Virus genome (UHGV): UHGV-0211320 | DNA from: a virus | DNA length: 36,929 nt | Strand: one strand, 5' to 3' | Shown: positions 38 to 21,283 of the stretch, one piece after another | Layout: every line of letters starts with the position of its first letter | Numbering within the stretch: position 1 is the stretch's first letter | The notes under the pieces: model-generated | The model's input: the letters and a program-made list of their open reading frames with translations, nothing else | The model's database searches: none | What the model was told of the DNA's origin: nothing | Program-made: the position numbers and the translations under genes

Positions 38-111
38 CTATGAAAAAACAAACCTATACGATAGGCTTATTCACGTGTCTATTGTATCAGAGAAAGAGAG
101 CTGATTCAATT

Positions 112-1323
112 ATGTCAGAAGTAACAGGATACTTAGAACAAGTAGACAATGAAACATATAGACTAAGAGCTGTATTAGGGTACAAACCTGATGGCTCGGC
201 AAAAAGAAAAAGCAAAACTATAAAAGCGAATAGTAAAAGAGCGGCATATAAAGAATTGAACATCTGGTTAGAACAATTCGAAGGAATGACCGATGATTCG
301 TTGGATTTATTCAATATAACTTTTGGTGAATTTTATAGAAAAATATGGCTTTCAGAGGCCGAAAAAAATTTAGAGCCAAAGTCTTATCATAACTATAAGC
401 GAATGATCGAGAATAGATTTCTTGATAAATTTGATTTTATCCCTCTAATCGATATCAAACCATACATGATAAAGAAAATTGTTGTTAATGCTCAAAGAAT
501 CAATACAAAAGATCCTGGAAGAAACTCTGATAAACCTTTATCAAGAAATACAAAGCTTCGTATGTTATACGCCGTTAACAACTTATTTTTGATGGCTAAA
601 AATGAGTACGGAGCAATTAAAGAAAATCCTGTGGAAAATGTAAAAATACCAAAAGAAAAAGGCGTAAAAAAGAATATCGAAGAACCTTATTCGGAAGAAG
701 AAATTCATGCAATGCTAAAAGCAGCATTTGAGGAAAGCATAGAAATTAAAACTTTAATTGTTCTAGCATTTATTACAGGAGCAAGACAAGGAGAAATTGC
801 AGCTTTAGAAGAAAAAGATATTGACTTTGACAAACAAGAAATAAGATTTCATCAGCGGATTTCAGAAGTAGATGGAAAATCAGATATTCGGTTGCTTCCA
901 GGTTTGAAAAATGATGATGATGAAAAAATAGTAACCGGTCCTGCTTATCTATTTGATATGCTAGATGAATTAATCAAAGAGAATAAAAAGATTCGTTGGA
1001 AATTAAATATAAAGAAATTAAAACACTATTTTATATTTGATACAAAACAAGACGGAACTTTGCCACGTGGAAGTTATCTGTATAAGAAGTTCAAACGATT
1101 CACCAAACGACACAATTTGCGTCACATTCGTTTTCACGACATTAGACATACATCAGCTACCTATTTGCTTAGCGATCCTAATATGACTCCAAAAGAGCTT
1201 CAAAAACGATTAGGACACCGAGATTTTAATACTACAATGAATGTTTATGGCCATGTCTTACGCAAAGAAAAAGATACAGCAGCTACAGCGTTTGAAAAAC
1301 TATTAAAAAAAGATATAAAATAA
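112..1323 (+). CDS. int: Tyrosine site-specific integrase (phage integrase family), with an N-terminal arm-binding (AP2-like/SAM-like) domain and a C-terminal catalytic domain.
   Basis: C-terminal HDIRHTSATYLL (HxxR) and NVYGHV (catalytic Tyr) motifs. The N-terminus MSEVTGYLEQVDNETYRLRAVLGYKPDGSAKRK is typical of Firmicutes phage integrase arm-binding domains. RBS GAGAG is upstream of the ATG at 112. The ORF-track start at 40 adds an implausible hydrophobic extension. Confidence 0.9.
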   Translation: MSEVTGYLEQVDNETYRLRAVLGYKPDGSAKRKSKTIKANSKRAAYKELNIWLEQFEGMTDDSLDLFNITFGEFYRKIWLSEAEKNLEPKSYHNYKRMIENRFLDKFDFIPLIDIKPYMIKKIVVNAQRINTKDPGRNSDKPLSRNTKLRMLYAVNNLFLMAKNEYGAIKENPVENVKIPKEKGVKKNIEEPYSEEEIHAMLKAAFEESIEIKTLIVLAFITGARQGEIAALEEKDIDFDKQEIRFHQRISEVDGKSDIRLLPGLKNDDDEKIVTGPAYLFDMLDELIKENKKIRWKLNIKKLKHYFIFDTKQDGTLPRGSYLYKKFKRFTKRHNLRHIRFHDIRHTSATYLLSDPNMTPKELQKRLGHRDFNTTMNVYGHVLRKEKDTAATAFEKLLKKDIK

Positions 1324-9284: not shown

Positions 9285-12200
9285 CTAACCTGTTGTATAT
9301 AGCGAACGTTTCAACTGGTTACCTAAGTATCCATTTGTATTGTCTGCAATTGCTTTACCATCAAGTTTGACACTTGTGTCTTTTGCTAAAAGTTTAGATA
9401 GCAAGTGATTCTGCTGAATCATCAGTGAAACTAATGTTTCTAACGTTCCGCTCGAATCACTACTGTTATTTACACTTTTTGGTTTTACTCCTAACTTATC
9501 TTGAGCAATTGCAAGCAACTGCATCGCTCTTGATCGTTTAGCCTTATCTAACGGAATAATAATTTCTGGCTTGTTTCCTTCTGCGATTTCCGCAATTTGA
9601 TGTTGGTTTACAATTCCACCATTTGCGTAACCATGACCACGCCCAATCACACCTAACATATCCGAACCATAGCGTTTTTTAGCGTAGTTGATAGCTGCTA
9701 AGATATTATCGAAACCGCTCATTATATTGCCGTATCCTGGAAAAGCATTCGCAGCAAATGTTCCCGGTTTTGTTTGGAGCAATCCAGTAGCATTACCGTC
9801 TGCTAAGCCGTCATTTCCACCAATGGCAAGCGGATTGCCACCTGATTCTGTTTGGATTTGTCGCATCCACGCATCGACATAAGCGGATGAGGTTGGTAAG
9901 TTATTCATTTTCAAAGCACGTTTTACATATGGCCGCCAGCGTTCTACGCCACTCCCACCAACGCTATCGCCACCGCTAACAAGTCCGCCCTGCGGATCTC
10001 TTACACCGTTTAAATGCACGTGGTCGTAGTGGTCTCCATCTGGCCAGGGTCTCCAATCGTTATGAATACCTGTACCTGATTGTCCTGAACGGTCACGAAC
10101 CTTACCATTTGTGATAACATAGCCGATTTTGTTTGCAAACTTCTCAAATGCGTAATTGGCTGCTTCTGTATATCTAGGGGAACCATTCACGACTCCCGGT
10201 AGCGCAATATCAATTGCGTTGTGCTTTCCGTGTGAGTATGGATCGCCTTCACGATAACCTGAGGTTACTTGAAAGCCTGGAAACTTCTTCATTACTGCAA
10301 CTGCAACGTCCGCCAAGTATTTGTAAACGCCTTGCATGCCCATTGAAGTGTCTAAACTGCCACTGCTGAATAGTTCTGTGATTTTGCTCGTCAATGCTTC
10401 GGTAGCCTTGCTTAGAATACCTTTACCAACATCTAAAGGATATTTGACAAGTCCTTCCAGTACGCCAAGACCATTTAACACTTTCCTAGCCAACGCTCCC
10501 GGGTCTGTTACAAAATCCCATACATCGCCGACTACATCTTTCAGCTTGTTTCCAACATCTCCAGCAAATCCTTTGACGTTGTTCCATAGATTTCCGAAAA
10601 AGCCTGTACCTTTGGCGTATCTATATCTTGGTGCTTTGTTTCCAGTCATATAAGCTGTTTCTTCAGCTGTTAGAACGTGTGTGCCTTTTGGTGCATTCAA
10701 CACTACATTTCGCCCTCGTGGGATAAATGCTTGCCCGTTAGGTGTGATTACCGCTTCAGCACCTCTACCGTCATTTACCATCATAGGCCCGCCCGGATGA
10801 CCTCCGTTTGGTGTTCCTTTTGCGTATTGTGGTACTTCCCATTCTTCGAGTTTGTCAGCACCCAGTTTTTCTAGCACCCATGAAGCTCCATTGATGATCG
10901 CGTTAACTGGTTTCCCCACCGCTTTAAGTGCTGCGTTGAATATACTTTTGAACGCATCAACAAGGGCATCTTTACCACCAATAATGGCATCCTTCATCTT
11001 CGTCGGTAGTTCTGAAAACCAATTGAATACTGTATCAATACCGCTACGGAAGTTGTCTTTGATACCGTTCCACAGGTTACCGATTGCATCAGAAACATTG
11101 TTCTTCAATTCAATTGCTTTGTTGAAAATGTTTTTTACCCAGCCAACTACCTTATTCCAAGTGTCTCCAACGCCATTGCTGAAGAAGTTTTTCACACCAT
11201 TCCACATGTTTTGGATGAAATTGCCAAACGTGGTTTTCAGGTTGCCAGCTTTGCTCAACAGATTAGTTACCCAATTGACTAGCTTATCCCAAGTTTTGGA
11301 AATACCTTCAGTAAAGAAAGTTTTAGTACTTTCCCATAGCCCTTTTATTGAGCCTGAAAAACCAGTCCACAAACCTTTTACTCCTTCTAAAATCCGTTTG
11401 AAGAATAGTATTTGAATCCAATTCCATACTGCTTGGATAGAACCCCAAAACAGTTGTTTTACTCCTTCCCACATCTTAGAAAAATCGCCTGTAAATAAAC
11501 CAGTGAAGATTTTGATAGCACCTTGAATGACGTTCATAATCCCTTCGACTAAACCTATTATATTGTCAATGAACCCCATGACTAAATCCATAACGATTTT
11601 TACAACGGGCTGTATAAACGTAAAAAAGTTCTTGATTGCTTCAATAATCTGTTTACCATTTTCATTCCAAAATGTGGTCATCGATTTTCCAATTTTAGAA
11701 AAAGCTCCGCCTATCTTTTCTATAATGGGCATTATATATGGCGACAAAGTATCGAAAATTCCTTTTGCAATTTGCCATGCAACTTCTATGCCGTTTTTAA
11801 TGTTTGACATAGCACCATCAAAGTATGTTTTGATATTGTCGAAAACATCTTTTATCTTAGAAATTGTTTCTGGAGAAAATCCTAATTTAGCTAGAACATC
11901 TTCCATGTCTGCGTTACCTTTGAATACGTCAAACAATGTCTTAACCGCGTTCTTTATTTTTTCTATGGTATCTTGTGCGAAAGTAACCATTTCTGGTGGG
12001 AAAATTTTAGTTAGAATATCAAAGCCTTGCTTTGCTTGATCTCCATCTAACGTTCCAAACAGCGTCCCAAAAGCAAGTGTTGCTATGTCAGCCCCTTTTT
12101 TCAACATGTCAAATACAGGTTGAGCGACGTTTTTTATGCTTTCCATTGCTGGCTTGATTTTGGTTGTTAAGTCGTCAATTCCTTTGCCTATGTCACTGAT

Positions 12201-13667
12201 CAAAGAAGTGATATTGCCTTTGCCGAAAGCATTAATTATTTCATTAATCATGTTTACGGCGCTGGCTTGCAGATTTCCAACCGCCCCCTCAATCGTAGCT
12301 GTGGAACCTGCTGCCTTTTTAGCTACATCAGTCATACCTAATTGCATGAATGCTTCATTCAATTCTTCAGCAGAGATTTCTCCGTTTGCCATAGCCTCGC
12401 GGAAGTCTCCGTCAGTATAAGCGCCCATTTCTTTCAATGCTTGTTGAATTTTCCCTGAAGCGCCCGGAATGGCATCCGCAATCTGATTAAAGTTTTCAGT
12501 TGTTAATTTGCCAGCACCGACAGTTTGTGTCATTGCCATTGCTACCGATTTGAACGTATCTGAGTTACCACCTGAAACGGCATTGACATTACCGATTGCC
12601 TGCGTTAGACCATCAAAGTCTTTCACACCGTTGGCTGCCAACTGTGCGGTCGTATTCATTACGTCGCCTAGTTCATAAACCGTTTGGTCGGCGTAATCTT
12701 TCATCACTGTTTTAGATTCTTCAATTTTCGAATTATCTATACCAGCAAATTGCATTGTTTGAACAAACTTGTCCATTGAATCGGAAGCCTCTACTGCTTC
12801 ATCTTTCAACCCCATGAAACTGTTAACAACACCGCCAACTGCTTGTGAAGCTAATCCAGCGACTGCACCAAACGAAAATGCGCCTTTTAGCGAGCTTAAT
12901 TTGTCTTTTAGTCCGTCCAGTTTCCTAGCTGACCTTGTTGATTTGTCGCCAAAATCTTCTATTTTTTTTCCTGATTGATCGCTGGAGCTTTTGAGTGCTT
13001 CTAATTGCCTGCTAGATATTTGGCTTTGTCGTTCTAACTTTTCTAATGCCCTTTTTGCATCTTCGGTTTCATTTGCTGAATCGCCAAACTCATCAGCCAT
13101 CAGTTTCACAACTTTGCGCTGTTCTTCGATAGCTTTCTCGGATAATTCCGTTTGTTTGGCTAGCCCTTTTTGTTTTGCTTCAAACGCACCAGATTCATCA
13201 CCAGCGGCTTTCAACGCTTTGACTTCGGCGTTCATTTGCCGTTCATTTTCTTTGATTTCATCAGATAAATCATTGACGGCTGTTTTGGAATACACCAATT
13301 CTTTTTTTGTGTCATTCAACTGGCGACTGTAAGCATTATATTTTGCGGTAGCATTGTTTATCTGTGTGTTAAGGTTAGCAACTTGTTTCGATTCCTCGCC
13401 ATACTTGCTAATCGCTTCATCACGGCGCTTTGTTAATTCTCTTACTTTGGCGTTTTGCCCTTCCATAACCGTAGACAAGTCTTTCGTCTTTTGACTAAGT
13501 GCTTCGTATGAACGTCCTGCTGAATCATAGGCCTTTAGATTGGCACGCATATTCGATTCTGCTTGTTTGACTTTCGCATTGATTTCGTCCAGCGTGTTAC
13601 CAAAACTAGTGCTATCTAAACTAATCCCTAGCTTGATATTTCCTGCCGGTTGTCCTTTTCCTGCCAT
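9285..13667 (-). CDS. Tail tape measure protein (1460 aa) with C-terminal lytic transglycosylase (SLT) and LAS/M15-like peptidase domains.
   Basis: Long coiled-coil and glycine-rich repeat regions. The SLT motif is QTESGGNPLAIGGNDGLADGNATGLLQ. The VanY/M15-like motif is SGYREGDPYSHGKHNAIDIA. Confidence 0.85.
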   Translation of the reverse strand: MAGKGQPAGNIKLGISLDSTSFGNTLDEINAKVKQAESNMRANLKAYDSAGRSYEALSQKTKDLSTVMEGQNAKVRELTKRRDEAISKYGEESKQVANLNTQINNATAKYNAYSRQLNDTKKELVYSKTAVNDLSDEIKENERQMNAEVKALKAAGDESGAFEAKQKGLAKQTELSEKAIEEQRKVVKLMADEFGDSANETEDAKRALEKLERQSQISSRQLEALKSSSDQSGKKIEDFGDKSTRSARKLDGLKDKLSSLKGAFSFGAVAGLASQAVGGVVNSFMGLKDEAVEASDSMDKFVQTMQFAGIDNSKIEESKTVMKDYADQTVYELGDVMNTTAQLAANGVKDFDGLTQAIGNVNAVSGGNSDTFKSVAMAMTQTVGAGKLTTENFNQIADAIPGASGKIQQALKEMGAYTDGDFREAMANGEISAEELNEAFMQLGMTDVAKKAAGSTATIEGAVGNLQASAVNMINEIINAFGKGNITSLISDIGKGIDDLTTKIKPAMESIKNVAQPVFDMLKKGADIATLAFGTLFGTLDGDQAKQGFDILTKIFPPEMVTFAQDTIEKIKNAVKTLFDVFKGNADMEDVLAKLGFSPETISKIKDVFDNIKTYFDGAMSNIKNGIEVAWQIAKGIFDTLSPYIMPIIEKIGGAFSKIGKSMTTFWNENGKQIIEAIKNFFTFIQPVVKIVMDLVMGFIDNIIGLVEGIMNVIQGAIKIFTGLFTGDFSKMWEGVKQLFWGSIQAVWNWIQILFFKRILEGVKGLWTGFSGSIKGLWESTKTFFTEGISKTWDKLVNWVTNLLSKAGNLKTTFGNFIQNMWNGVKNFFSNGVGDTWNKVVGWVKNIFNKAIELKNNVSDAIGNLWNGIKDNFRSGIDTVFNWFSELPTKMKDAIIGGKDALVDAFKSIFNAALKAVGKPVNAIINGASWVLEKLGADKLEEWEVPQYAKGTPNGGHPGGPMMVNDGRGAEAVITPNGQAFIPRGRNVVLNAPKGTHVLTAEETAYMTGNKAPRYRYAKGTGFFGNLWNNVKGFAGDVGNKLKDVVGDVWDFVTDPGALARKVLNGLGVLEGLVKYPLDVGKGILSKATEALTSKITELFSSGSLDTSMGMQGVYKYLADVAVAVMKKFPGFQVTSGYREGDPYSHGKHNAIDIALPGVVNGSPRYTEAANYAFEKFANKIGYVITNGKVRDRSGQSGTGIHNDWRPWPDGDHYDHVHLNGVRDPQGGLVSGGDSVGGSGVERWRPYVKRALKMNNLPTSSAYVDAWMRQIQTESGGNPLAIGGNDGLADGNATGLLQTKPGTFAANAFPGYGNIMSGFDNILAAINYAKKRYGSDMLGVIGRGHGYANGGIVNQHQIAEIAEGNKPEIIIPLDKAKRSRAMQLLAIAQDKLGVKPKSVNNSSDSSGTLETLVSLMIQQNHLLSKLLAKDTSVKLDGKAIADNTNGYLGNQLKRSLYTTG

Positions 13668-14193
13668 TATTTACCTCCTTCCTCAAGTTTTACCAAGTCT
13701 TCAGCCGATAAAAATTGTTTGATGAAATCAGCACCATCTACATATTCTTCGCCATTCTCCACTTCTCCAAAAAGGTGTAACAAATAATGATAGTCGGCTT
13801 CGTCCACATCTCTCATCGTCCAACCTGATTCGATTAAATCTTTGTAGATTTGATCCATTGCTTTCCTAGCTTCAGAAAAACTTATCTCTTTTTGCTCGCT
13901 ATCTGCTTTTTTTCATTGTTTCCCAGTTCATTGATTTGTTCAAAAACACTTTCTAATGCCGGTACTAACTCGCTCGCAGTCAAACCGTCTAAAATAGCAT
14001 CAAATGTAACTGCTGGATCTTGGAAAATATCTGCTGTAATTGCAATCATTGAATCAATTGCTTCTAAATCAGTTAGGTCTGCTTTTTCCGCTTTCTCGTA
14101 AAATTTGATACACTCACGCATTGCACGTGCGGAAATATCTTGTTGTTTGAATGTTTTTTTCTTTCCGTCAAGTTTCAATTGCAATTCAATCAT
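13667..14193 (-). CDS. Tail assembly chaperone G-T fusion made by a programmed -1 ribosomal frameshift. G alone is 13882..14193; the T segment continues to 13667.
   Basis: Slippery heptamer A AAA AAG (G + A7 + G, plus-strand 13906-13914) lies 8 codons before the G stop. The -1 frame opens exactly after a TGA at that point and runs through the 63-aa T ORF (MDQIYKDL...). The position between the major tail and TMP genes is canonical. Confidence 0.8.
13907..13913 (-). promoter_or_regulatory. -1 PRF slippery site (A7 tract) of the G/GT chaperone genes.
   Basis: GAA AAA AAG read on the minus strand (plus strand CTTTTTTTC). Confidence 0.75.
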
Positions 14194-14249: not shown

Positions 14250-14825
14250 TTATTCTCCGCTTGCGGGTAGTGTAGCGACGTTGTTTACTAAGTTCTTGAA
14301 TGCAGCCAAAGTCATTTCTTCTGATTCTACGGCTGTTAAGTATACATAGCCACGTTCATCAGAAATGAATTCCCCTTCGATAGAATCGGTTTGTAATTCT
14401 ACCCCTTTGTCTTCAGCTGTTTTCATGTCGATATCTGGATGACTGAATTTTCCTTTTGCCAATCCCATGAATAAGCGTTTTCCTTCTTTGTTCGCTGTAA
14501 CCATGACTACCGACACGTAAGGCGCTGCAGTTTCTGAACCAATTACATTTACACCATCCACGGTTTTAGCGCCAATGATTTCGCTGTAAATGCCGTTATC
14601 CATTAAGTCTGCCACGTCAAGCGTAACTTTTGGTGACGAAACCCCTTTACTTGCAATGAAGAACGGTACGTTTGAAGCGTATGTTGTGTTAGAAGTTGCG
14701 CCTAATCCAGTAATTTTAGCTTCGATCGCTCCGCCTTTTGACTTATCTGCTACTAATTCTTTTAGAGTGCCGTCTGCACCTGTTTTTACGCCAAAAATGA
14801 CGCTCTCAAATCCTACTGTTGCCAT
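14250..14825 (-). CDS. Major tail protein.
   Basis: 191 aa, immediately upstream of the G/GT chaperone genes, with Ig-like beta-rich composition typical of siphovirus major tail proteins. Confidence 0.7.
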   Translation of the reverse strand: MATVGFESVIFGVKTGADGTLKELVADKSKGGAIEAKITGLGATSNTTYASNVPFFIASKGVSSPKVTLDVADLMDNGIYSEIIGAKTVDGVNVIGSETAAPYVSVVMVTANKEGKRLFMGLAKGKFSHPDIDMKTAEDKGVELQTDSIEGEFISDERGYVYLTAVESEEMTLAAFKNLVNNVATLPASGE

Positions 14826-15604: not shown

Positions 15605-15936
15605 TTTGAAACCTCTTTTGCAATGATTGTCGTGAAGTCTTTTGTAAACTCGCCCTTTGTAATTGTGATGATTTCAAACGTTTTTCCATTCCAACGCACT
15701 TTCATATCATTGGTTAGCTCTGATTTTTGTTGGTAGCGGATAATGAACGTCAGTGTTCCTTCCAAAGCCGTGCCAATCGACGCCTTAACGTCACTCAAGC
15801 GTTGTGTTTGAACACAAGCCCAACAAGAAAAAACAGTCTCAGGTGTGGTGACCAGCTGGCCGTCCTCGTCCTTGACTGTCGTATCCTTTATAAAGTCAAT
15901 ACGTTGACTTAGGTCACTCGTCTGTATTAACGCCAT
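15601..15936 (-). CDS. Head closure / head-tail adaptor protein.
   Basis: 111 aa in the conserved position after the gp6-like connector. Its start and stop codons overlap its neighbours. Confidence 0.55.
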   Translation of the reverse strand: MALIQTSDLSQRIDFIKDTTVKDEDGQLVTTPETVFSCWACVQTQRLSDVKASIGTALEGTLTFIIRYQQKSELTNDMKVRWNGKTFEIITITKGEFTKDFTTIIAKEVSK

Positions 15937-16198
15937 GATCTAGCCCCCTCAACTGATGAATCAAAGCAGTCACTCCAAATGGAATCTCCGCGAATGCTTT
16001 TTCACTTGTAGCAATCCGGTTCTCATACCAGTGAGATACCAGCAACGTGACCGCATAGTTAAACCGTTCATCATCTGTTTTTTCGACTTCGATCGATCCA
16101 AGAATAAATTTTTCAGCCGTGGACACCAACATTTTTAAAAGCTCGTCGTCCAGATCATGATCAATGCGAAGGTATGTTTTTAGTTCTGCCAGTTCCAT
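15914..16198 (-). CDS. Head-tail connector (gp6-like DNA packaging / connector protein).
   Basis: 94 aa with the typical helical N-terminus (MELAELKTYLRID...). It follows the capsid and Ig-like segment. Confidence 0.6.
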   Translation of the reverse strand: MELAELKTYLRIDHDLDDELLKMLVSTAEKFILGSIEVEKTDDERFNYAVTLLVSHWYENRIATSEKAFAEIPFGVTALIHQLRGLDHGVNTDE

Positions 16199-16209
16199 TC
16201 AATCACCGC

Positions 16210-16419
16210 CTATTCAGCAGTTACGGTAACTTCACACACCGCAGTTTTTCCGTTTGCAGTTGTTGCAGTGATTATTGCTGTACCAGCTGCAATACCTGTG
16301 ATTTTGCCTTGAACCGGCGTTACTGTGGCAATTGCCTCATCGCTAGAACTGTATTTAACCGATTTGTCCGTTGCGTCAGCTGGCAAGACAGTCGCTGACA
16401 GTGTTTCTGATGCCCCCAC
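16210..16419 (-). CDS. Ig-like (Big_2) domain segment. Probably not a free-standing gene but the C-terminal extension of the major capsid protein, reached by a -1 frameshift.
   Basis: ASETLSATVLPADATDKSVKYSSSDEAIATVTPVQGKITGIAAGTAIITATTANGKTAVCEVTVTAE is a Big_2 domain. The nominal GTG start lacks an RBS and cuts off the first ~15 residues of the domain. Those residues are encoded upstream in the -1 frame, overlapping the capsid 3' end. Confidence 0.6.
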   Translation of the reverse strand: MGASETLSATVLPADATDKSVKYSSSDEAIATVTPVQGKITGIAAGTAIITATTANGKTAVCEVTVTAE

Positions 16420-16463
16420 CGCAAGCGTAGTCGTTGTTTTGTTTAACGTTACGCCGGATGGGT

Positions 16464-17657
16464 CTATGCTTTTGGGCCCAGTGTTACGTAAAAGCCTGCA
16501 GCAGTGTCGGCTACTTCAACATCAAAACGAATGAATCCTGCTAACAATTGACCATATACATCGTTATCTACCCAACGAACAGACGCTTGTTGACGATCAA
16601 AGAATTTTGCAAATAGTGAAGGATCTCCCACAAATGCTACTTTGTCACCTGCTTTTGTTCCAATTACATCATCCGCCATTACAACAACTTCACGCCCTAA
16701 TAGTTTGTAACCCGAAGCAACTGTAACGTCTTGTTGCAACAAGTAACGTCCGTCATTATCTTTCATTTTGTCTAACTCGTTGAAGAAGCTTTGAGAAGCA
16801 ATGAATTTCACGTTGTAAGCAGGATCAATAGCAACATTCACGATGTCTTTCAAATCGTCAATCGTAGTAACAGTTTTAGCTGTTGCTGTTTGCAACTTAG
16901 CAGCAATTGCAGCGTTTGAAGTGTTTAGTGATTGACGTTGGATATGTTCAGCGACCAAACCGCCTAGATCGATATCGGAATCGTCTAATGCTTCTTGAGA
17001 AACTGGAATGTATCCACGGTAAGTGGCAATTTCGTAGTTTACTTTTGTAAATTCAGGGTTAGCTAACGCTGGGTTTTTAGCCAATTCAGCCACAGAGATC
17101 ATTTTATTTTTGTTAGCTCTCAAAATTGGATATGATCCTGTACCTGTTGTTACTGGCACACGTCCTACGTGTTGACGTAAGTCGACAACTGTTTCGGGTT
17201 GTTTTTCTGGTTTAGTGATACGGTCAACTGGAATAACTGCTTCTGCTCCGACTGTTGTCAATCCGTCGCGTTTTTCTCCTTTTGTACGAATGAATTGATT
17301 GATTGAGCGTGTGTATGTTTCTTTTTTGTCGTTTAGGATAACTTCCATTGATCTTTTCTCCTCTTTGTCTTTTTTGTCTTTTTTAGGCGGAATAAGCGGT
17401 ACTTCTTCCTTTTCTTCTGGTTCTTTATCCTTTTCAGGTTCAGTTGGTTCAGTTGGTTCTTCTGTTTCAGGCTCTGTTTTAGGTTCATCAGAAACGCCTA
17501 AGTCTTTTAACTCGTCTTCAAGCTCAGTTTTTAATTGTGCTTGCGTTTCTTCTTGCTCTTTGTTGGCTTTGATTTGAGCCAACAAACCCTTGGCTTTTTC
17601 CAAATCGCCTGCATCAAGCGCTTTTTGTGCTTCTACTTTTAACTTTTCGTTATCCAA
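16464..17657 (-). CDS. Major capsid protein (HK97 fold) with an N-terminal scaffold-like delta domain.
   Basis: N-terminal ~100 aa are coiled-coil and E/K/P-rich with EPTEPTEP repeats. The C-terminal ~300 aa match the HK97-type capsid pattern. The gene follows the prohead protease. Confidence 0.85.
   Translation of the reverse strand: MDNEKLKVEAQKALDAGDLEKAKGLLAQIKANKEQEETQAQLKTELEDELKDLGVSDEPKTEPETEEPTEPTEPEKDKEPEEKEEVPLIPPKKDKKDKEEKRSMEVILNDKKETYTRSINQFIRTKGEKRDGLTTVGAEAVIPVDRITKPEKQPETVVDLRQHVGRVPVTTGTGSYPILRANKNKMISVAELAKNPALANPEFTKVNYEIATYRGYIPVSQEALDDSDIDLGGLVAEHIQRQSLNTSNAAIAAKLQTATAKTVTTIDDLKDIVNVAIDPAYNVKFIASQSFFNELDKMKDNDGRYLLQQDVTVASGYKLLGREVVVMADDVIGTKAGDKVAFVGDPSLFAKFFDRQQASVRWVDNDVYGQLLAGFIRFDVEVADTAAGFYVTLGPKA
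16470..16476 (-). promoter_or_regulatory. Candidate -1 PRF slippery heptamer C CCA AAA, two codons before the capsid stop.
   Basis: On the minus strand, ...CTG GGC CCA AAA GCA TAG. After a -1 slip the reading continues as S I D P S G V T L N K T T T T L A V G A S E T L..., a complete Big_2 domain. The -1 frame is open from 16515 down to 16210. Confidence 0.55.
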
Positions 17658-17698: not shown

Positions 17699-18250
17699 CT
17701 AGTAATTTAGAAGCTCTAGTTCTATCTCTAATTTTCGTTTTTCTTTTTCATTGATTACTCGTTTCAATGATCGTTGCGCTAAGACTGCATCCGTTCCTTC
17801 GTAAGCTGGGATCGAAACAATCGATATTTCGAATAATTCATCGATCTTATTTAGATTGCGGATATACATTCCATCTTGATTTTCCCACGTTTGAGAATCA
17901 TCTTTTACGGCAAAACCGAACGAACATTCGTTGATATCACCACGTTTTATGGATTCGTACAAATCGTTGGCGTAAGAAGTATTTGGCAGTTGACATCTGA
18001 AATGAAGTCCTACGTCATCCACTTCCAACTCTAGCGTTTGCGATGACGTTCTTCCTAAAACCATACTTGAATCATGATCGACAAAACAGCGAACATCTGA
18101 TAAATCGGTCGTATCCAACGCTTGTGGCGAAATTATTTCTTTGAACCCGCCAAGGTCTCTGCTCAACGAATTGAATTTCATTGCGTAGCCCTCAATCGTT
18201 CGATTGTCCGTTGACTGGATTTCCGCTAAACTCCGAATTTCCATTTCCAC
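17699..18250 (-). CDS. Prohead maturation protease (HK97 family).
   Basis: Sits between portal and capsid. Real start is probably GTG at 18250 or ATG at 18244, behind RBS AGGAGGTG. The ORF-track start at 18337 overlaps the portal gene by 146 nt. Confidence 0.7.
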   Translation of the reverse strand: MEMEIRSLAEIQSTDNRTIEGYAMKFNSLSRDLGGFKEIISPQALDTTDLSDVRCFVDHDSSMVLGRTSSQTLELEVDDVGLHFRCQLPNTSYANDLYESIKRGDINECSFGFAVKDDSQTWENQDGMYIRNLNKIDELFEISIVSIPAYEGTDAVLAQRSLKRVINEKEKRKLEIELELLNY

Positions 18251-19376
18251 TATTCCCACCTCCTTTCGCTGTGGTTTTCGTGTACAAAACATCTCCATTA
18301 GGAATGCTTGGCAATCCGTAATAATCTCTGACCTCATTAATCAGTAGATAACCGTCTCCGCCGTTGCCATCTTCCATTGCTTTATTCATCCTAGAAGCCT
18401 TGTCTTGCCCTGTAAGCGTAGAGAAGTCAAGTTCTACATTAATACCTAACTTGATTGCTAACTCATCTGTAATCATCTGCGAGAGCGCCCTAAGCGTACT
18501 AGAAACGTAGGAATCGTTAGCCGAATCGTCTTTGGTATTGACTAACTCCATACCAAAACGTGACAAAGGAATGCCGAACGCTTTAGCAATTTGTTTTGTC
18601 GAGTACACGTTGTTTTGAATCATCTTCAAAATATCCGTATTTAGCTCAAACTGTTTGAATTCCTGTGTATCGTCCAAAACAATTACGCTATTAGCGTTAG
18701 AAGCACCGCTGTTTACTTCTTCAAAGTCTTGCTTAATTTGCTTTTTAGACTTGTTATTCAGCGTACCTTTATTGAGCTTCAAAACTCCGCCTGCTTGAAT
18801 CCCCTTCTTGAAGAAGGAGCTTAGCATTTTGTTCCCATTGTCGAGCATGGAAAGTTCTGTTTTGAGTGCATCCAATGGACTGATACCGGTTTTTCCGTTT
18901 ACAGTTATATATTTGAAGTGCAACATCTCACTAGAATCAACACTGTACGAATTTCCTGCTTTGTTTGTGTACTCATAACGCAACACACCTGTTTCTAAAT
19001 CTTCGTAAACGACGACTTGTGACGGTTTAGCAAACTCTAAGCTATTTTCACGAATGATCGCAAAAGCATTCCCTGACAAAAGCATTTGAGCCGTGATAGC
19101 AAACATGAAAGAATATGGTGTCATACTTGCGTTTGGGTACTTGTTCAACATGTCTAACTTTCGAATGTCTGCTTGCTTATCATCGGAAAACTTGAACTTG
19201 CTGGCGGCGATATCCCCAGCCAATATCTTTACCGCTGTAAACACATCAGACTGTTCTAGTGCCGTTTCTCCGTCAAAGTTGATGGTCGTGTTCCCATTTA
19301 CAGTTGAAATGAAGTCGAGCATTGTACTCGAACGACTGGACAAGCTACGTTTTTCCGTTTGGAAAAATAAACCCAT
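18192..19376 (-). CDS. Portal protein (HK97 family).
   Basis: 394 aa, downstream of terL. C-terminus is Gly/Asn/Ser-rich. Sequence pattern is typical of HK97-type portals. Confidence 0.8.
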   Translation of the reverse strand: MGLFFQTEKRSLSSRSSTMLDFISTVNGNTTINFDGETALEQSDVFTAVKILAGDIAASKFKFSDDKQADIRKLDMLNKYPNASMTPYSFMFAITAQMLLSGNAFAIIRENSLEFAKPSQVVVYEDLETGVLRYEYTNKAGNSYSVDSSEMLHFKYITVNGKTGISPLDALKTELSMLDNGNKMLSSFFKKGIQAGGVLKLNKGTLNNKSKKQIKQDFEEVNSGASNANSVIVLDDTQEFKQFELNTDILKMIQNNVYSTKQIAKAFGIPLSRFGMELVNTKDDSANDSYVSSTLRALSQMITDELAIKLGINVELDFSTLTGQDKASRMNKAMEDGNGGDGYLLINEVRDYYGLPSIPNGDVLYTKTTAKGGGNSGNGNSEFSGNPVNGQSND

Positions 19377-19395: not shown

Positions 19396-19566
19396 CTATA
19401 ATTCTGATTCTCGAACCAAAATAAAAACGGTAAGCATTAAACTAATGCCCACCGTCAGGAATCCGATAATCTGGTTAAACAAAAAAGCTGCGGCTATGAA
19501 TGAAACTAGCCCTAAAACATACAAAATAATCACGATTAGTCTTAACTTGTTACCATCCAAAGCCAT
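19396..19566 (-). CDS. Small two-TM membrane protein (56 aa).
   Basis: RBS GAAAGGGG upstream of ATG (MALDGNKLRL...), followed by two hydrophobic helices. It sits between terL and portal. Confidence 0.4.
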   Translation of the reverse strand: MALDGNKLRLIVIILYVLGLVSFIAAAFLFNQIIGFLTVGISLMLTVFILVRESEL

Positions 19567-21283
19567 ACTCGCCCCTTTCAATCAATTCATTGATATCTTC
19601 TTCATCAAAATCATGGTACATTGCCTGCGTGTAAGCATTAATCAACGCATCTAAAGGATCAATCTTATTTCGATTCATTGCCTTATCAATCATGATTGTA
19701 TCGTTGTTTTCTTTGGTGATTGCGTTTCTGATTGCTCTGTTAAGCAGTGGATTGTTTGAATGGACTGTTTTTCCTTTAATAACGTCCGTTCTAAATTGTT
19801 TTGTCGGAACGTTCAAAGTTATCAGTCCTTGTCGCACTTCAATCATTTCTTTCTCGTAGAATTTCGATAGATCAGTAATAACATTACCAGCATTATACGG
19901 ATCGTAAAAGATACCTTTTAGCTCAAAGTTATTACTTTCGATGAAATCAGTAAGCCAATTGACTAAATCGTGATAGTCAATCAATCCGTCCGGACTACTA
20001 CTAATCGTGCAATATCCTGCTTGCTCATATTGTCGGTATGGTGTTTTGTCTTCTTTTTCTTTTGCTTCAATTCCGCCACGATTGGCTACAAAGGAATAGC
20101 TATCAACAAAAAACTTACTTTCTTCTCTGATTGGAATGACCCACGAAATAGAAGTTAAGTCATTCACTCGTGACAAATCGACACCGATGTAAATCTCACG
20201 CCCTGTTAAGTCCGTTTGTTTGATGTAATCAGGAGCAACGGCAGAAGTCCACTCTTCTTCGCTCATATAACTTTCTTGTGAAGATTGAACCCATATGTTG
20301 AATTCTTTAGTAAGAACATTTGATATACTTCCTTTTGCTTTTCCTTCGTCTAAAAGTCGTTTTTTGTTTTCAGTTAGTCGTTCTTTTTGTTCTGATAGTT
20401 CCATTAATGGGTTGGACTTTATCCACATATCAGTGTCCACTACTTCTTTAGCATTGTCCTGTTCCCAACATAGCGCTAAATACTCATCGCCTACCACTTC
20501 TTCTTTTAGCAACTTCGTTACATACTGATACTCTATCGAGTACATTGGATAGTTTAGTTTGCTTGAAGCCGTTGAAATGATAATCGTTAGCGGTTCGATT
20601 TGTTGCCCCATTGACGTTTCGATAACATCCATCATTTCCGTTGTTTTAGACAGGGCATACTCATCAAAAATGCCCAACAATGTATCGAGACCGTCTAATG
20701 TATCTGCATCAGCAGACAGTGGTTTCATAAATGAATCATCTGTCGTAGTAAGCTCGTTTTGTAGAACCTTTGTAAATTTCTGGATCGCTTTACTTTTTCC
20801 ACGTAAGGCTTTTAATTGTGACTTAACCATAGTGAAAACGATTTTCGCTTGATCTCGTTTGTTAGCAGTAGCGTATATCTGTCTTGCTTGTCGTGGATTT
20901 CGTTCGTAAATTAGACAGTACAGCGCAATCCCTGAAACAATCAACGATTTTCCTTGCTTACGTGCTAGCGAAAGATAGGCTTTTCTGAAACGCTTGGTAT
21001 TGTCTTTCTTTCTTCGCCAGCCCCATAACATCCCTAGAATGAATTTCTGGAATAGTGCCAACTTATTAGGCTTGCCACTCTTAGGATCTGGAAGCATTGA
21101 AATGAATTTTACGATATTTTGAGTGTATTTTGGTTCGTAGTAGTAAGGAAAGTCATCTCGCTTTGACCTCTCGATATCCTTTTTGTGTCTATCAATTGCC
21201 ATCTGTATCTTCTCACAGACTAAGATATTCCCATTTTCTACTTCATCAATGTATTTTTGAACGTGATCAATCATCACTATCAA
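19550..21283 (-). CDS. terL: Terminase large subunit (Terminase_1 / HK97-type).
   Basis: 577 aa with Walker A-like LARKQGKS and an ATPase plus nuclease domain pattern. Its start overlaps the terS stop (translational coupling). Start may be TTG at 21283 or ATG at 21274. Confidence 0.9.
   Translation of the reverse strand: MIVMIDHVQKYIDEVENGNILVCEKIQMAIDRHKKDIERSKRDDFPYYYEPKYTQNIVKFISMLPDPKSGKPNKLALFQKFILGMLWGWRRKKDNTKRFRKAYLSLARKQGKSLIVSGIALYCLIYERNPRQARQIYATANKRDQAKIVFTMVKSQLKALRGKSKAIQKFTKVLQNELTTTDDSFMKPLSADADTLDGLDTLLGIFDEYALSKTTEMMDVIETSMGQQIEPLTIIISTASSKLNYPMYSIEYQYVTKLLKEEVVGDEYLALCWEQDNAKEVVDTDMWIKSNPLMELSEQKERLTENKKRLLDEGKAKGSISNVLTKEFNIWVQSSQESYMSEEEWTSAVAPDYIKQTDLTGREIYIGVDLSRVNDLTSISWVIPIREESKFFVDSYSFVANRGGIEAKEKEDKTPYRQYEQAGYCTISSSPDGLIDYHDLVNWLTDFIESNNFELKGIFYDPYNAGNVITDLSKFYEKEMIEVRQGLITLNVPTKQFRTDVIKGKTVHSNNPLLNRAIRNAITKENNDTIMIDKAMNRNKIDPLDALINAYTQAMYHDFDEEDINELIERGEYGFGW

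Follow-up and report, generated by a model that had tools for sequence, protein, structure and literature searches.

A predicted −1 frameshift site at the 3′ end of the major capsid gene in a prophage that is almost certainly from Enterococcus

The window analysed here is a stretch of 36,929 nucleotides (nt) from UHGV virus genome UHGV-0211320. This study concerns the 3′ end of its major capsid gene, where a −1 reading frame that encodes an immunoglobulin-like (Ig-like) Big_2 domain begins inside the capsid gene and continues past its stop codon (Table 1). The capsid open reading frame (ORF) matches the Pfam family Phage_capsid (PF05065, E 2.6e-27), and the Shine-Dalgarno-like sequence AAAGGAGG precedes its TTG start. 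The N-terminal ~105 amino acids (aa), rich in E and K, are probably a scaffold (delta) domain that would be cut off by the prohead protease encoded next to it; in the record of phage A2, the mat_peptide of the capsid begins at residue 124. The capsid gene ends on the minus strand with GGC TTT TAC GTA ACA CTG GGC CCA AAA GCA TAG. These codons contain C_CCA_AAA, at which tRNA-Pro and tRNA-Lys are able to re-pair one base back, and this is the sole canonical X_XXY_YYZ heptamer inside the overlap of the two frames. A first-pass annotation had proposed that a −1 frameshift at this heptamer appends the Ig-like domain to the capsid, and all of its coordinates proved correct.

Relatives were collected by capsid-based searches with the junction left out of the query, which gave 35 loci from bacterial genomes (one genome per species) and 76 loci from IMG/VR. 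Forty of these loci, from isolate genomes and metagenomes, have at least 91% capsid identity and are called the clade here. CCCAAAA-G-NN-TAG was invariant in all 40. The six codons upstream of the heptamer drift synonymously, and G-F-Y-V-T-L is spelled in three ways (GGC TTT TAC GTA ACA CTG, GGG TTC TAC GTG ACG CTT, and GGT TTC TAT GTT ACG TTA). The codon past the heptamer is GCA, GCG, GTA, GAA or GGA. Before the proline, the clade has Gly, Ala or Ser, and distant relatives have Thr, Ser or Asp as the residue, while the codon before CCA is always NNC (GGC, GCC, AGC, ACC, TCC and GAC across the lineages). Because this residue changes while its codon keeps the final C, selection at the heptamer acts on the nucleotide and not on the amino acid. 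C_CCA_AAA was also present in phages A2 and J-1, in Latilactobacillus phage TMW 1.706 P1 and in a Lacticaseibacillus locus (L022), and the spacing of heptamer, one sense codon and stop is identical in every relative that bears the cassette. Brochothrix BtpYZU02 and many Bacillaceae prophages, which have related capsids with neither extension nor heptamer, were used as negative controls. No heptamer was found in the extension-less capsids of BtpYZU02 or of the Aquibacillus, Caryophanon, Exiguobacterium, Neobacillus and Cytobacillus prophages.

The relationship of the two frames is also conserved. The first-pass annotation had held that a −1 frame closed in close relatives would speak against a frameshift, and the same capsid/Big_2 frame relationship was found in 39 of the 40 clade loci, with L050 as the exception, as well as in A2, J-1 and the Latilactobacillus phages. 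In a search of 5.8 billion proteins, none of the 120 matches listed (70 further) carries the capsid and Big_2 Pfam domains on one protein, and thus the out-of-frame layout seems to be maintained and not resolved into a fusion.

The closest known system is that of Lactobacillus casei phage A2, which makes the major head proteins gp5A and gp5B and whose frameshift has been shown by experiment. According to Atkins et al. 2016 (PMC5009743) and PMC7260188, a −1 frameshift in the A2 capsid gene yields an Ig-like extension, which agrees with the earlier remark that such capsid fusions are known in phages. The CCCAAAA site is named for BH1, Lrm1, J-1, PL-1 and A2 in PMC6950654, and the GenBank record of J-1 has a two-piece joined coding sequence (CDS) "major capsid L" and a "major capsid S". 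When a junction-spanning query was used in tblastn, A2 and its relatives matched in two pieces. The A2 capsid gene ends with ACC CCA AAA GCG TAA and its −1 frame runs on with SVTPDGVTLSQK..., and the capsid gene of TMW 1.706 P1 ends with TCC CCA AAA GCG TAA. The conceptual fusion from the window aligned to the A2 fusion with 41% identity over 433 aa (BLASTP, E 2e-98), unbroken through ...PKS[IV].P.GVTL..., and to the TMW 1.706 P1 fusion with 51% identity (E 1e-121), again unbroken at the junction. By these comparisons, the site in the window belongs to a known family of recoding sites.

Similar to the window, A2 has a homologous HK97-type capsid, an identical C_CCA_AAA followed by one Ala codon and a stop, a −1 extension of 86-87 aa that starts with S-[IV] and has an Ig-like fold, and a hairpin predicted 7-9 nt downstream. 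The gene order is protease, capsid, extension and head-tail connector in both. The two differ in that A2 (like J-1, PL-1, BH1 and Lrm1) infects Lacticaseibacillus and the window belongs to an Enterococcus phage, and the stop is TAA in A2 and TAG in the window. Moreover, their hairpin sequences are unrelated, and their extension domains are only loosely similar. The long form in the window is a prediction. The original A2 work of Garcia, Rodriguez and Suarez in 2004 (J Bacteriol 186:1714) reportedly found that mutation of the heptamer abolished gp5B, that a stem-loop lies past the site, and that both capsid forms are needed for viable phage; its title is said to call the long form essential.

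The −1 frame opens at position 16515, as the first-pass annotation had read it, and is closed by the TAG at 16212..16210. The CDS of the predicted long form, join(17657..16470, 16470..16210), lies on the minus strand and uses base 16470 twice. The predicted reading past the slip is ...TLGPK SIDPSGVTLNKTTTTLAVGASE..., with the junction TLGPK|SIDPSGVTL that had been given before, and the junction peptide expected of the long form would be ...TLGPKSIDPSGVTLNK. The conceptual long form has 482 aa. It is indeed larger than the short form, as had been predicted, by a computed 8.3 kDa instead of the ~9 kDa first estimated.

Three lines of evidence indicate that the Big_2 domain extends upstream of the 69-aa ORF that a mechanical caller starts at GTG 16419. 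Big_2 (PF02368) matches the −1 extension at profile positions 4-79 of 79 (E 7e-17, 61.6 bits vs a cut-off of 22.8), and it matches the 69-aa ORF only at positions 17-79. The AlphaFold model of the 86-aa extension is a nine-strand beta-sandwich (predicted local distance difference test score, pLDDT, of 93.8), and its strands at residues 6-9 and 13-17 sit upstream of the GTG. In Foldseek, the model matched the Big_2 domain of 7quz with a template modelling (TM) score of 0.88 and a root mean square deviation of 0.7. It also matched the C-terminal domain of lambda gpV and the Ig domains of phi29 gp8 and mycobacteriophage Douge gp8 (probability 1.0, TM 0.78-0.88), and sequence matches of the extension to lambda gpV were found as well. 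Therefore, a complete Big_2 domain needs translation upstream of the first start codon. Between 16515 and 16419, no ATG, GTG or TTG occurs in the −1 frame before the GTG itself. There is no Shine-Dalgarno sequence before this GTG, for which the computed duplex is +0.4 kcal/mol vs −5.9 to −13.6 kcal/mol in 14 neighbouring genes. The first-pass annotation was thus right that the ORF lacks both a ribosome-binding site and the start of its own domain, and the ORF is probably not an independent gene. Among 31 distinct sequences, the ratio of nonsynonymous to synonymous polymorphism (pN/pS) of the extension was 0.28 in the −1 frame vs 1.0-1.3 in the two other frames, which points to purifying selection in the −1 frame only.

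Ig-like accessory domains on phage structural proteins were reportedly described by Fraser et al. in 2006. Lambda gpV, phi29 gp8 and Douge gp8 have the same fold as the extension, and the domain is likewise C-terminal on a major virion protein. In these three proteins, however, the domain is in frame and on every subunit, whereas in the window it would be on a fraction of the subunits only. Salmonella phage KE25, in which 98% of the junction query matched in one piece, was considered as an in-frame fusion and rejected, since the match is a 226-aa multi-Ig structural protein by the tail genes and not a capsid.

A 48-nt hairpin, predicted to be stimulatory and not noticed in the first-pass annotation, begins 7 nt past the heptamer, within the 5-9 nt at which such structures can stimulate a slip. 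When it is folded in isolation, the minimum free energy is −16.5 kcal/mol (z −3.48), and none of 200 shuffled sequences folds as well. The fold of the whole 101-nt region is unremarkable (z −0.12), and only the isolated hairpin stands out. RNAalifold on 18 distinct clade sequences gave the same helix. On this structure, 97.4% of the cells are paired, and sliding the partners by 1-3 columns lowers this to 29-57%. Compensatory changes were observed at two pairs: L008 and L010 have U-A in place of C-G, and L001 and L047 have C-G in place of U-A. The hairpin is likely rather than proven, and its stimulatory role is a prediction. GTG 16419..16417 is base-paired inside the 3′ arm, and thus initiation there would be further disfavoured. 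Upstream of the heptamer, only a weak AGG ~20 nt away could be seen by eye as an internal Shine-Dalgarno stimulator, and we make no claim for it.

We consider it highly probable that a long capsid protein with an Ig-like domain is made by programmed −1 ribosomal frameshifting at CCCAAAA. The register of the heptamer, the full Big_2 domain, the 40 clade loci and the positionally identical cassette of A2 all support this proposal of the first-pass annotation. Most ribosomes would stop at the TAG and give the ordinary capsid subunit. Some would pause with tRNA-Pro on CCA and tRNA-Lys on AAA because of the hairpin, perhaps helped by the stop one codon on. Both tRNAs would then slide one base back onto CCC and AAA, and decoding would go on in the −1 frame for 86 further codons. 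The product would be a minority capsid subunit, 8.3 kDa larger, with a short linker and a Big_2 domain that is presumably shown on the head surface, and the proportion of long and short subunits would be determined by a fixed efficiency of slippage. Slippage in this phage, its efficiency, the long form in virions and the role of the domain are what we infer. Possible roles of the Big_2 domain are weak carbohydrate adhesion, capsid stabilisation or a requirement in assembly.

Several observations weigh against this proposal. Canonical in-frame heptamers occur at 0.43% of codons in the A+T-rich window, and the probability of at least one by chance in the 17-codon overlap is ~7%. Taken alone, the heptamer is weak evidence and only mildly significant, and the case is carried by its conservation and by the homology to phage A2. 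For the 17 codons before the GTG alone, pN/pS was 0.40 vs 0.45, so no single frame is favoured. The covariation in the hairpin amounts to two events, each in two related sequences of a 95%-identical alignment, and some of this conservation may stem from the coding constraint that also acts on these bases. The hairpins predicted past the A2 and Latilactobacillus sites were no better than shuffled sequence. Furthermore, locus L050 (IMGVR_UViG_2565956807_000005) has lost one nucleotide (ACCC to ACC) immediately past the capsid stop. Its Big_2 ORF is otherwise intact but lies in the +1 frame, and a −1 slip there would end after six codons. Since this is a single locus, the deletion is in a homopolymer and the ORF is otherwise intact, it probably reflects an error in sequencing or a mutation that arose very recently.

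The Ig-like ORF might instead be a separate gene for a free head-decoration protein, started at ATA 16467 (85 aa) or at GTG 16419 (69 aa) and maybe coupled to capsid translation. NCBI and UniRef do hold an 85-aa "Ig-like domain-containing protein [Enterococcus faecium]" that begins with MDPSG, and the ATA overlaps the capsid TAG, so that re-initiation is possible in principle. Small head-decoration genes exist in other phages, and in two relatives (L017 and L098) a gene with an ATG start occupies this position. However, ATA is a very weak initiator at best, the upstream duplex is −2.4 kcal/mol with no real Shine-Dalgarno sequence, and in five of the 40 clade loci, as in the distant A2, TMW 1.706 P1 and L022, the non-start codon GTA stands in its place. 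Annotated orthologues have at least four arbitrary N-termini (MDPSG, MRPKSVDPSG, MTLNK and MNKTT), and no start is conserved among them. Initiation at the GTG, which lies in a stem without a Shine-Dalgarno sequence, would drop two beta-strands. The features expected of an independent head-decoration gene, namely a conserved start, a ribosome-binding site and a complete domain downstream, were not found here, and a separate gene leaves the nucleotide conservation of CCCAAAA amid changing amino acids unexplained. We regard this explanation as improbable.

It is still harder to believe that no frameshift product exists because the Big_2 ORF is a decaying remnant, or because the split is an assembly error in an in-frame capsid-Ig fusion. 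The indel of L050 shows that the junction can mutate or be mis-sequenced, and solved capsids with in-frame Ig-like domains exist in phi29 gp8 and mycobacteriophage Douge gp8. Yet the frame relation recurs across the clade, in A2 and J-1 and in phages of Latilactobacillus, purifying selection acts on an intact ORF, and the 120 homologues listed included no in-frame fusion. A long form could also come from RNA polymerase slippage on the A4 run or from stop-codon readthrough, both known routes to C-extended phage proteins (see the review PMC5009743), but we give these hardly any credence. The A4 run is far shorter than the runs known to support productive slippage. Readthrough of the TAG would meet a TAA in the 0 frame four codons on (ACC CAT CCG GCG TAA), and the Big_2 frame would not be reached. 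Neither route would require the conserved CCC part of the heptamer or the hairpin. Programmed −1 frameshifting thus remains the reading that we prefer.

The first-pass annotation expected that gene callers would miss the fusion, and this is what public records show. NCBI lists the 85-aa protein from ATA 16467, and entries with this ATA start (16465..16467) occur for E. faecium, E. hirae, E. durans and E. lactis in NCBI and UniRef. These 85-aa entries look like a systematic mis-annotation of the frameshift product.

Other capsid genes of phages are recoded near the 3′ end. Capsid frameshifts in the Listeria phages A118 and A500 (−1) and PSA (+1 at ACA_CCC) are covered in PMC5009743, and were reportedly described by Dorscht et al. 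2009 and Zimmer et al. 2003. Similar to the window, these are temperate Firmicutes siphoviruses with two capsid C-termini made by recoding at the 3′ end of the gene, but their shift sites differ. Their records were not among the 60 matches listed (626 further) in the junction-spanning tblastn search, and thus their capsids are probably of a different lineage. In T3 and T7, a −1 shift near the end of gene 10A/10B gives a minor C-extended subunit, and the extension is Ig-like in T3 (PMC5009743) but not in T7. T3 and T7 are unlike the window in that they are podoviruses, and neither their capsid lineage nor their slippery sequences are related to those of the window.

Capsids of the same family with 45-50% identity, from Lacticaseibacillus, Weissella, Leuconostoc and Limosilactobacillus prophages, have a HeH/LEM-like domain (PF12949, PHROG 12526, function unknown) instead of Big_2. 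It is an extension of 45-60 aa in an alternative frame past the capsid stop. In L022 and L104 (junction ~2391-2403), the same C_CCA_AAA GCG TAA cassette leads to the HeH domain, and both are identical to A2 over 17 nucleotides (CCCAAAAGCGTAACGCC in L022) before they diverge, L022 into the HeH/LEM-like domain. Three loci (L102, L105 and L109) have G_GGA_AAT TAA and, 6 nt on, a perfect 7-bp CCCCACC/GGTGGGG hairpin, and L021 has a TCA_AAA_TAA route to the HeH domain. In L018, L019/L099, L100 and L101/L108, the HeH domain is in the +1 frame past a conserved ACR_CCC_A; this +1 route in L018, L019, L100 and L101 recalls the +1 site of Listeria phage PSA. The separate ATG-started gene of L017 and L098 ends in a HeH domain as well. 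It is possible, and we suggest it only tentatively, that "C_CCA_AAA, one codon, stop, hairpin" at the 3′ end of capsid genes of this family is a portable docking site where recombination places different display domains. The HeH fold is usually tied to DNA binding. If the HeH extensions are real, a frameshift-appended HeH domain on a capsid subunit could connect the shell with DNA packaging. No paper that combines HeH, capsid and frameshift was found in the literature searched. Popovic et al. 2012, as cited in PMC4493119, proposed a −1 frameshift that fuses gpFI-like proteins to capsid proteins, and this may partly anticipate a frameshift-appended HeH domain.

Big_2 also lies in the −1 frame past the capsid in L005 (Enterococcus phage vB_Efm10_KEN22, ~1660-1680) and L006 (Streptococcus thermophilus phage 9871, ~1490-1520). 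These two have no canonical heptamer and end with ...A_AAG_TAA (GTA AAG TAA and ACA AAG TAA), which suggests single-tRNA-Lys slippage beside the stop as a second type of site. The capsid of phage 9871 is from another family.

The window is a temperate siphovirus-type prophage with a tyrosine integrase and a structural module (Table 1). Its tail chaperone gene (PF23857) has A_AAA_AAG in register near its end (13912..13906, minus strand). The −1 frame stays open from this site almost to the tape-measure start at 13667, and the site is expected to be the classical G/GT tail-chaperone frameshift site. An upstream G_GGA_AAC at 13924 was rejected as the slip site, since a −1-frame stop follows and it cannot serve.

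Table 1. Features of the capsid junction and of the surrounding prophage in the window
Feature	Coordinates	Strand	Remarks
Major capsid gene, 0 frame, short form	16464..17657	−	397-aa precursor, HK97-like; structural module
Slippery heptamer C_CCA_AAA	16476..16470	−	X_XXY_YYZ register; read directly
Capsid 0-frame stop TAG	16466..16464	−	One codon (GCA) past the heptamer
Overlap zone, −1 frame open inside capsid gene	16467..16515	−	Opens past TGA 16518..16516
−1-frame extension (predicted)	16470..16213 (86 codons) + TAG 16212..16210	−	Linker SIDPS and complete Big_2 Ig-like domain
69-aa GTG ORF	16210..16419	−	Mechanical ORF call; truncated domain
Predicted stimulatory hairpin, 48 nt	16462..16415	−	Begins 7 nt 3′ of the heptamer
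Hairpin parts	5′ arm 16462..16445; loop 16444..16436; 3′ arm 16435..16415	−	From the fold
Tyrosine integrase	40..1323	+	ORF and profile annotation
TerL	19550..21283	−	Structural module
Portal	18192..19376	−	Structural module
S78 prohead protease	17699..18337	−	Structural module
gp6-like connector	15914..16198	−	Structural module
Tail tube	14250..14825	−	Structural module
Tail chaperone	13882..14193	−	Structural module
Tape measure	9285..13667	−	Structural module

The host is almost certainly Enterococcus. The Ig-like ORF is identical to an E. faecium protein in NCBI apart from the start residue (M in NCBI). The nearest capsids are in genomes of E. durans, E. hailinensis, E. dongliensis and E. 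hermanniensis. Two unannotated records, OR846730.1 (L001) and OR848098.1, are named "Listeria phage LM 4-11-1/4-14-1" and flagged UNVERIFIED_ORG. They have 93% nucleotide identity to the head module of the Enterococcus prophage in the window. Since the capsid clade is otherwise confined to Enterococcus genomes, the Listeria label of these records looks doubtful.

Neither the mechanism nor the heptamer, with its position and the kind of domain that it appends, is new, and the capsid is homologous to that of the type example. New are the lineage and the genus of the host, a hairpin with good support, and the evidence that public annotation of many Enterococcus genomes lacks the predicted long form. 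No paper describing a capsid frameshift in enterococcal phages was found in the literature searched. Mechanistically the finding adds nothing, but it carries the A2 paradigm into a further genus and offers a well-conserved hairpin that can be studied. Its main value is for annotation, since the long capsid form would be missing from the databases for many Enterococcus genomes. Ig-like domains on phage heads have been linked to carbohydrate and mucus adhesion. Whether an enterococcal gut prophage displays such a domain, and on what fraction of its capsid subunits, would bear on phage-host and phage-mucosa interactions.

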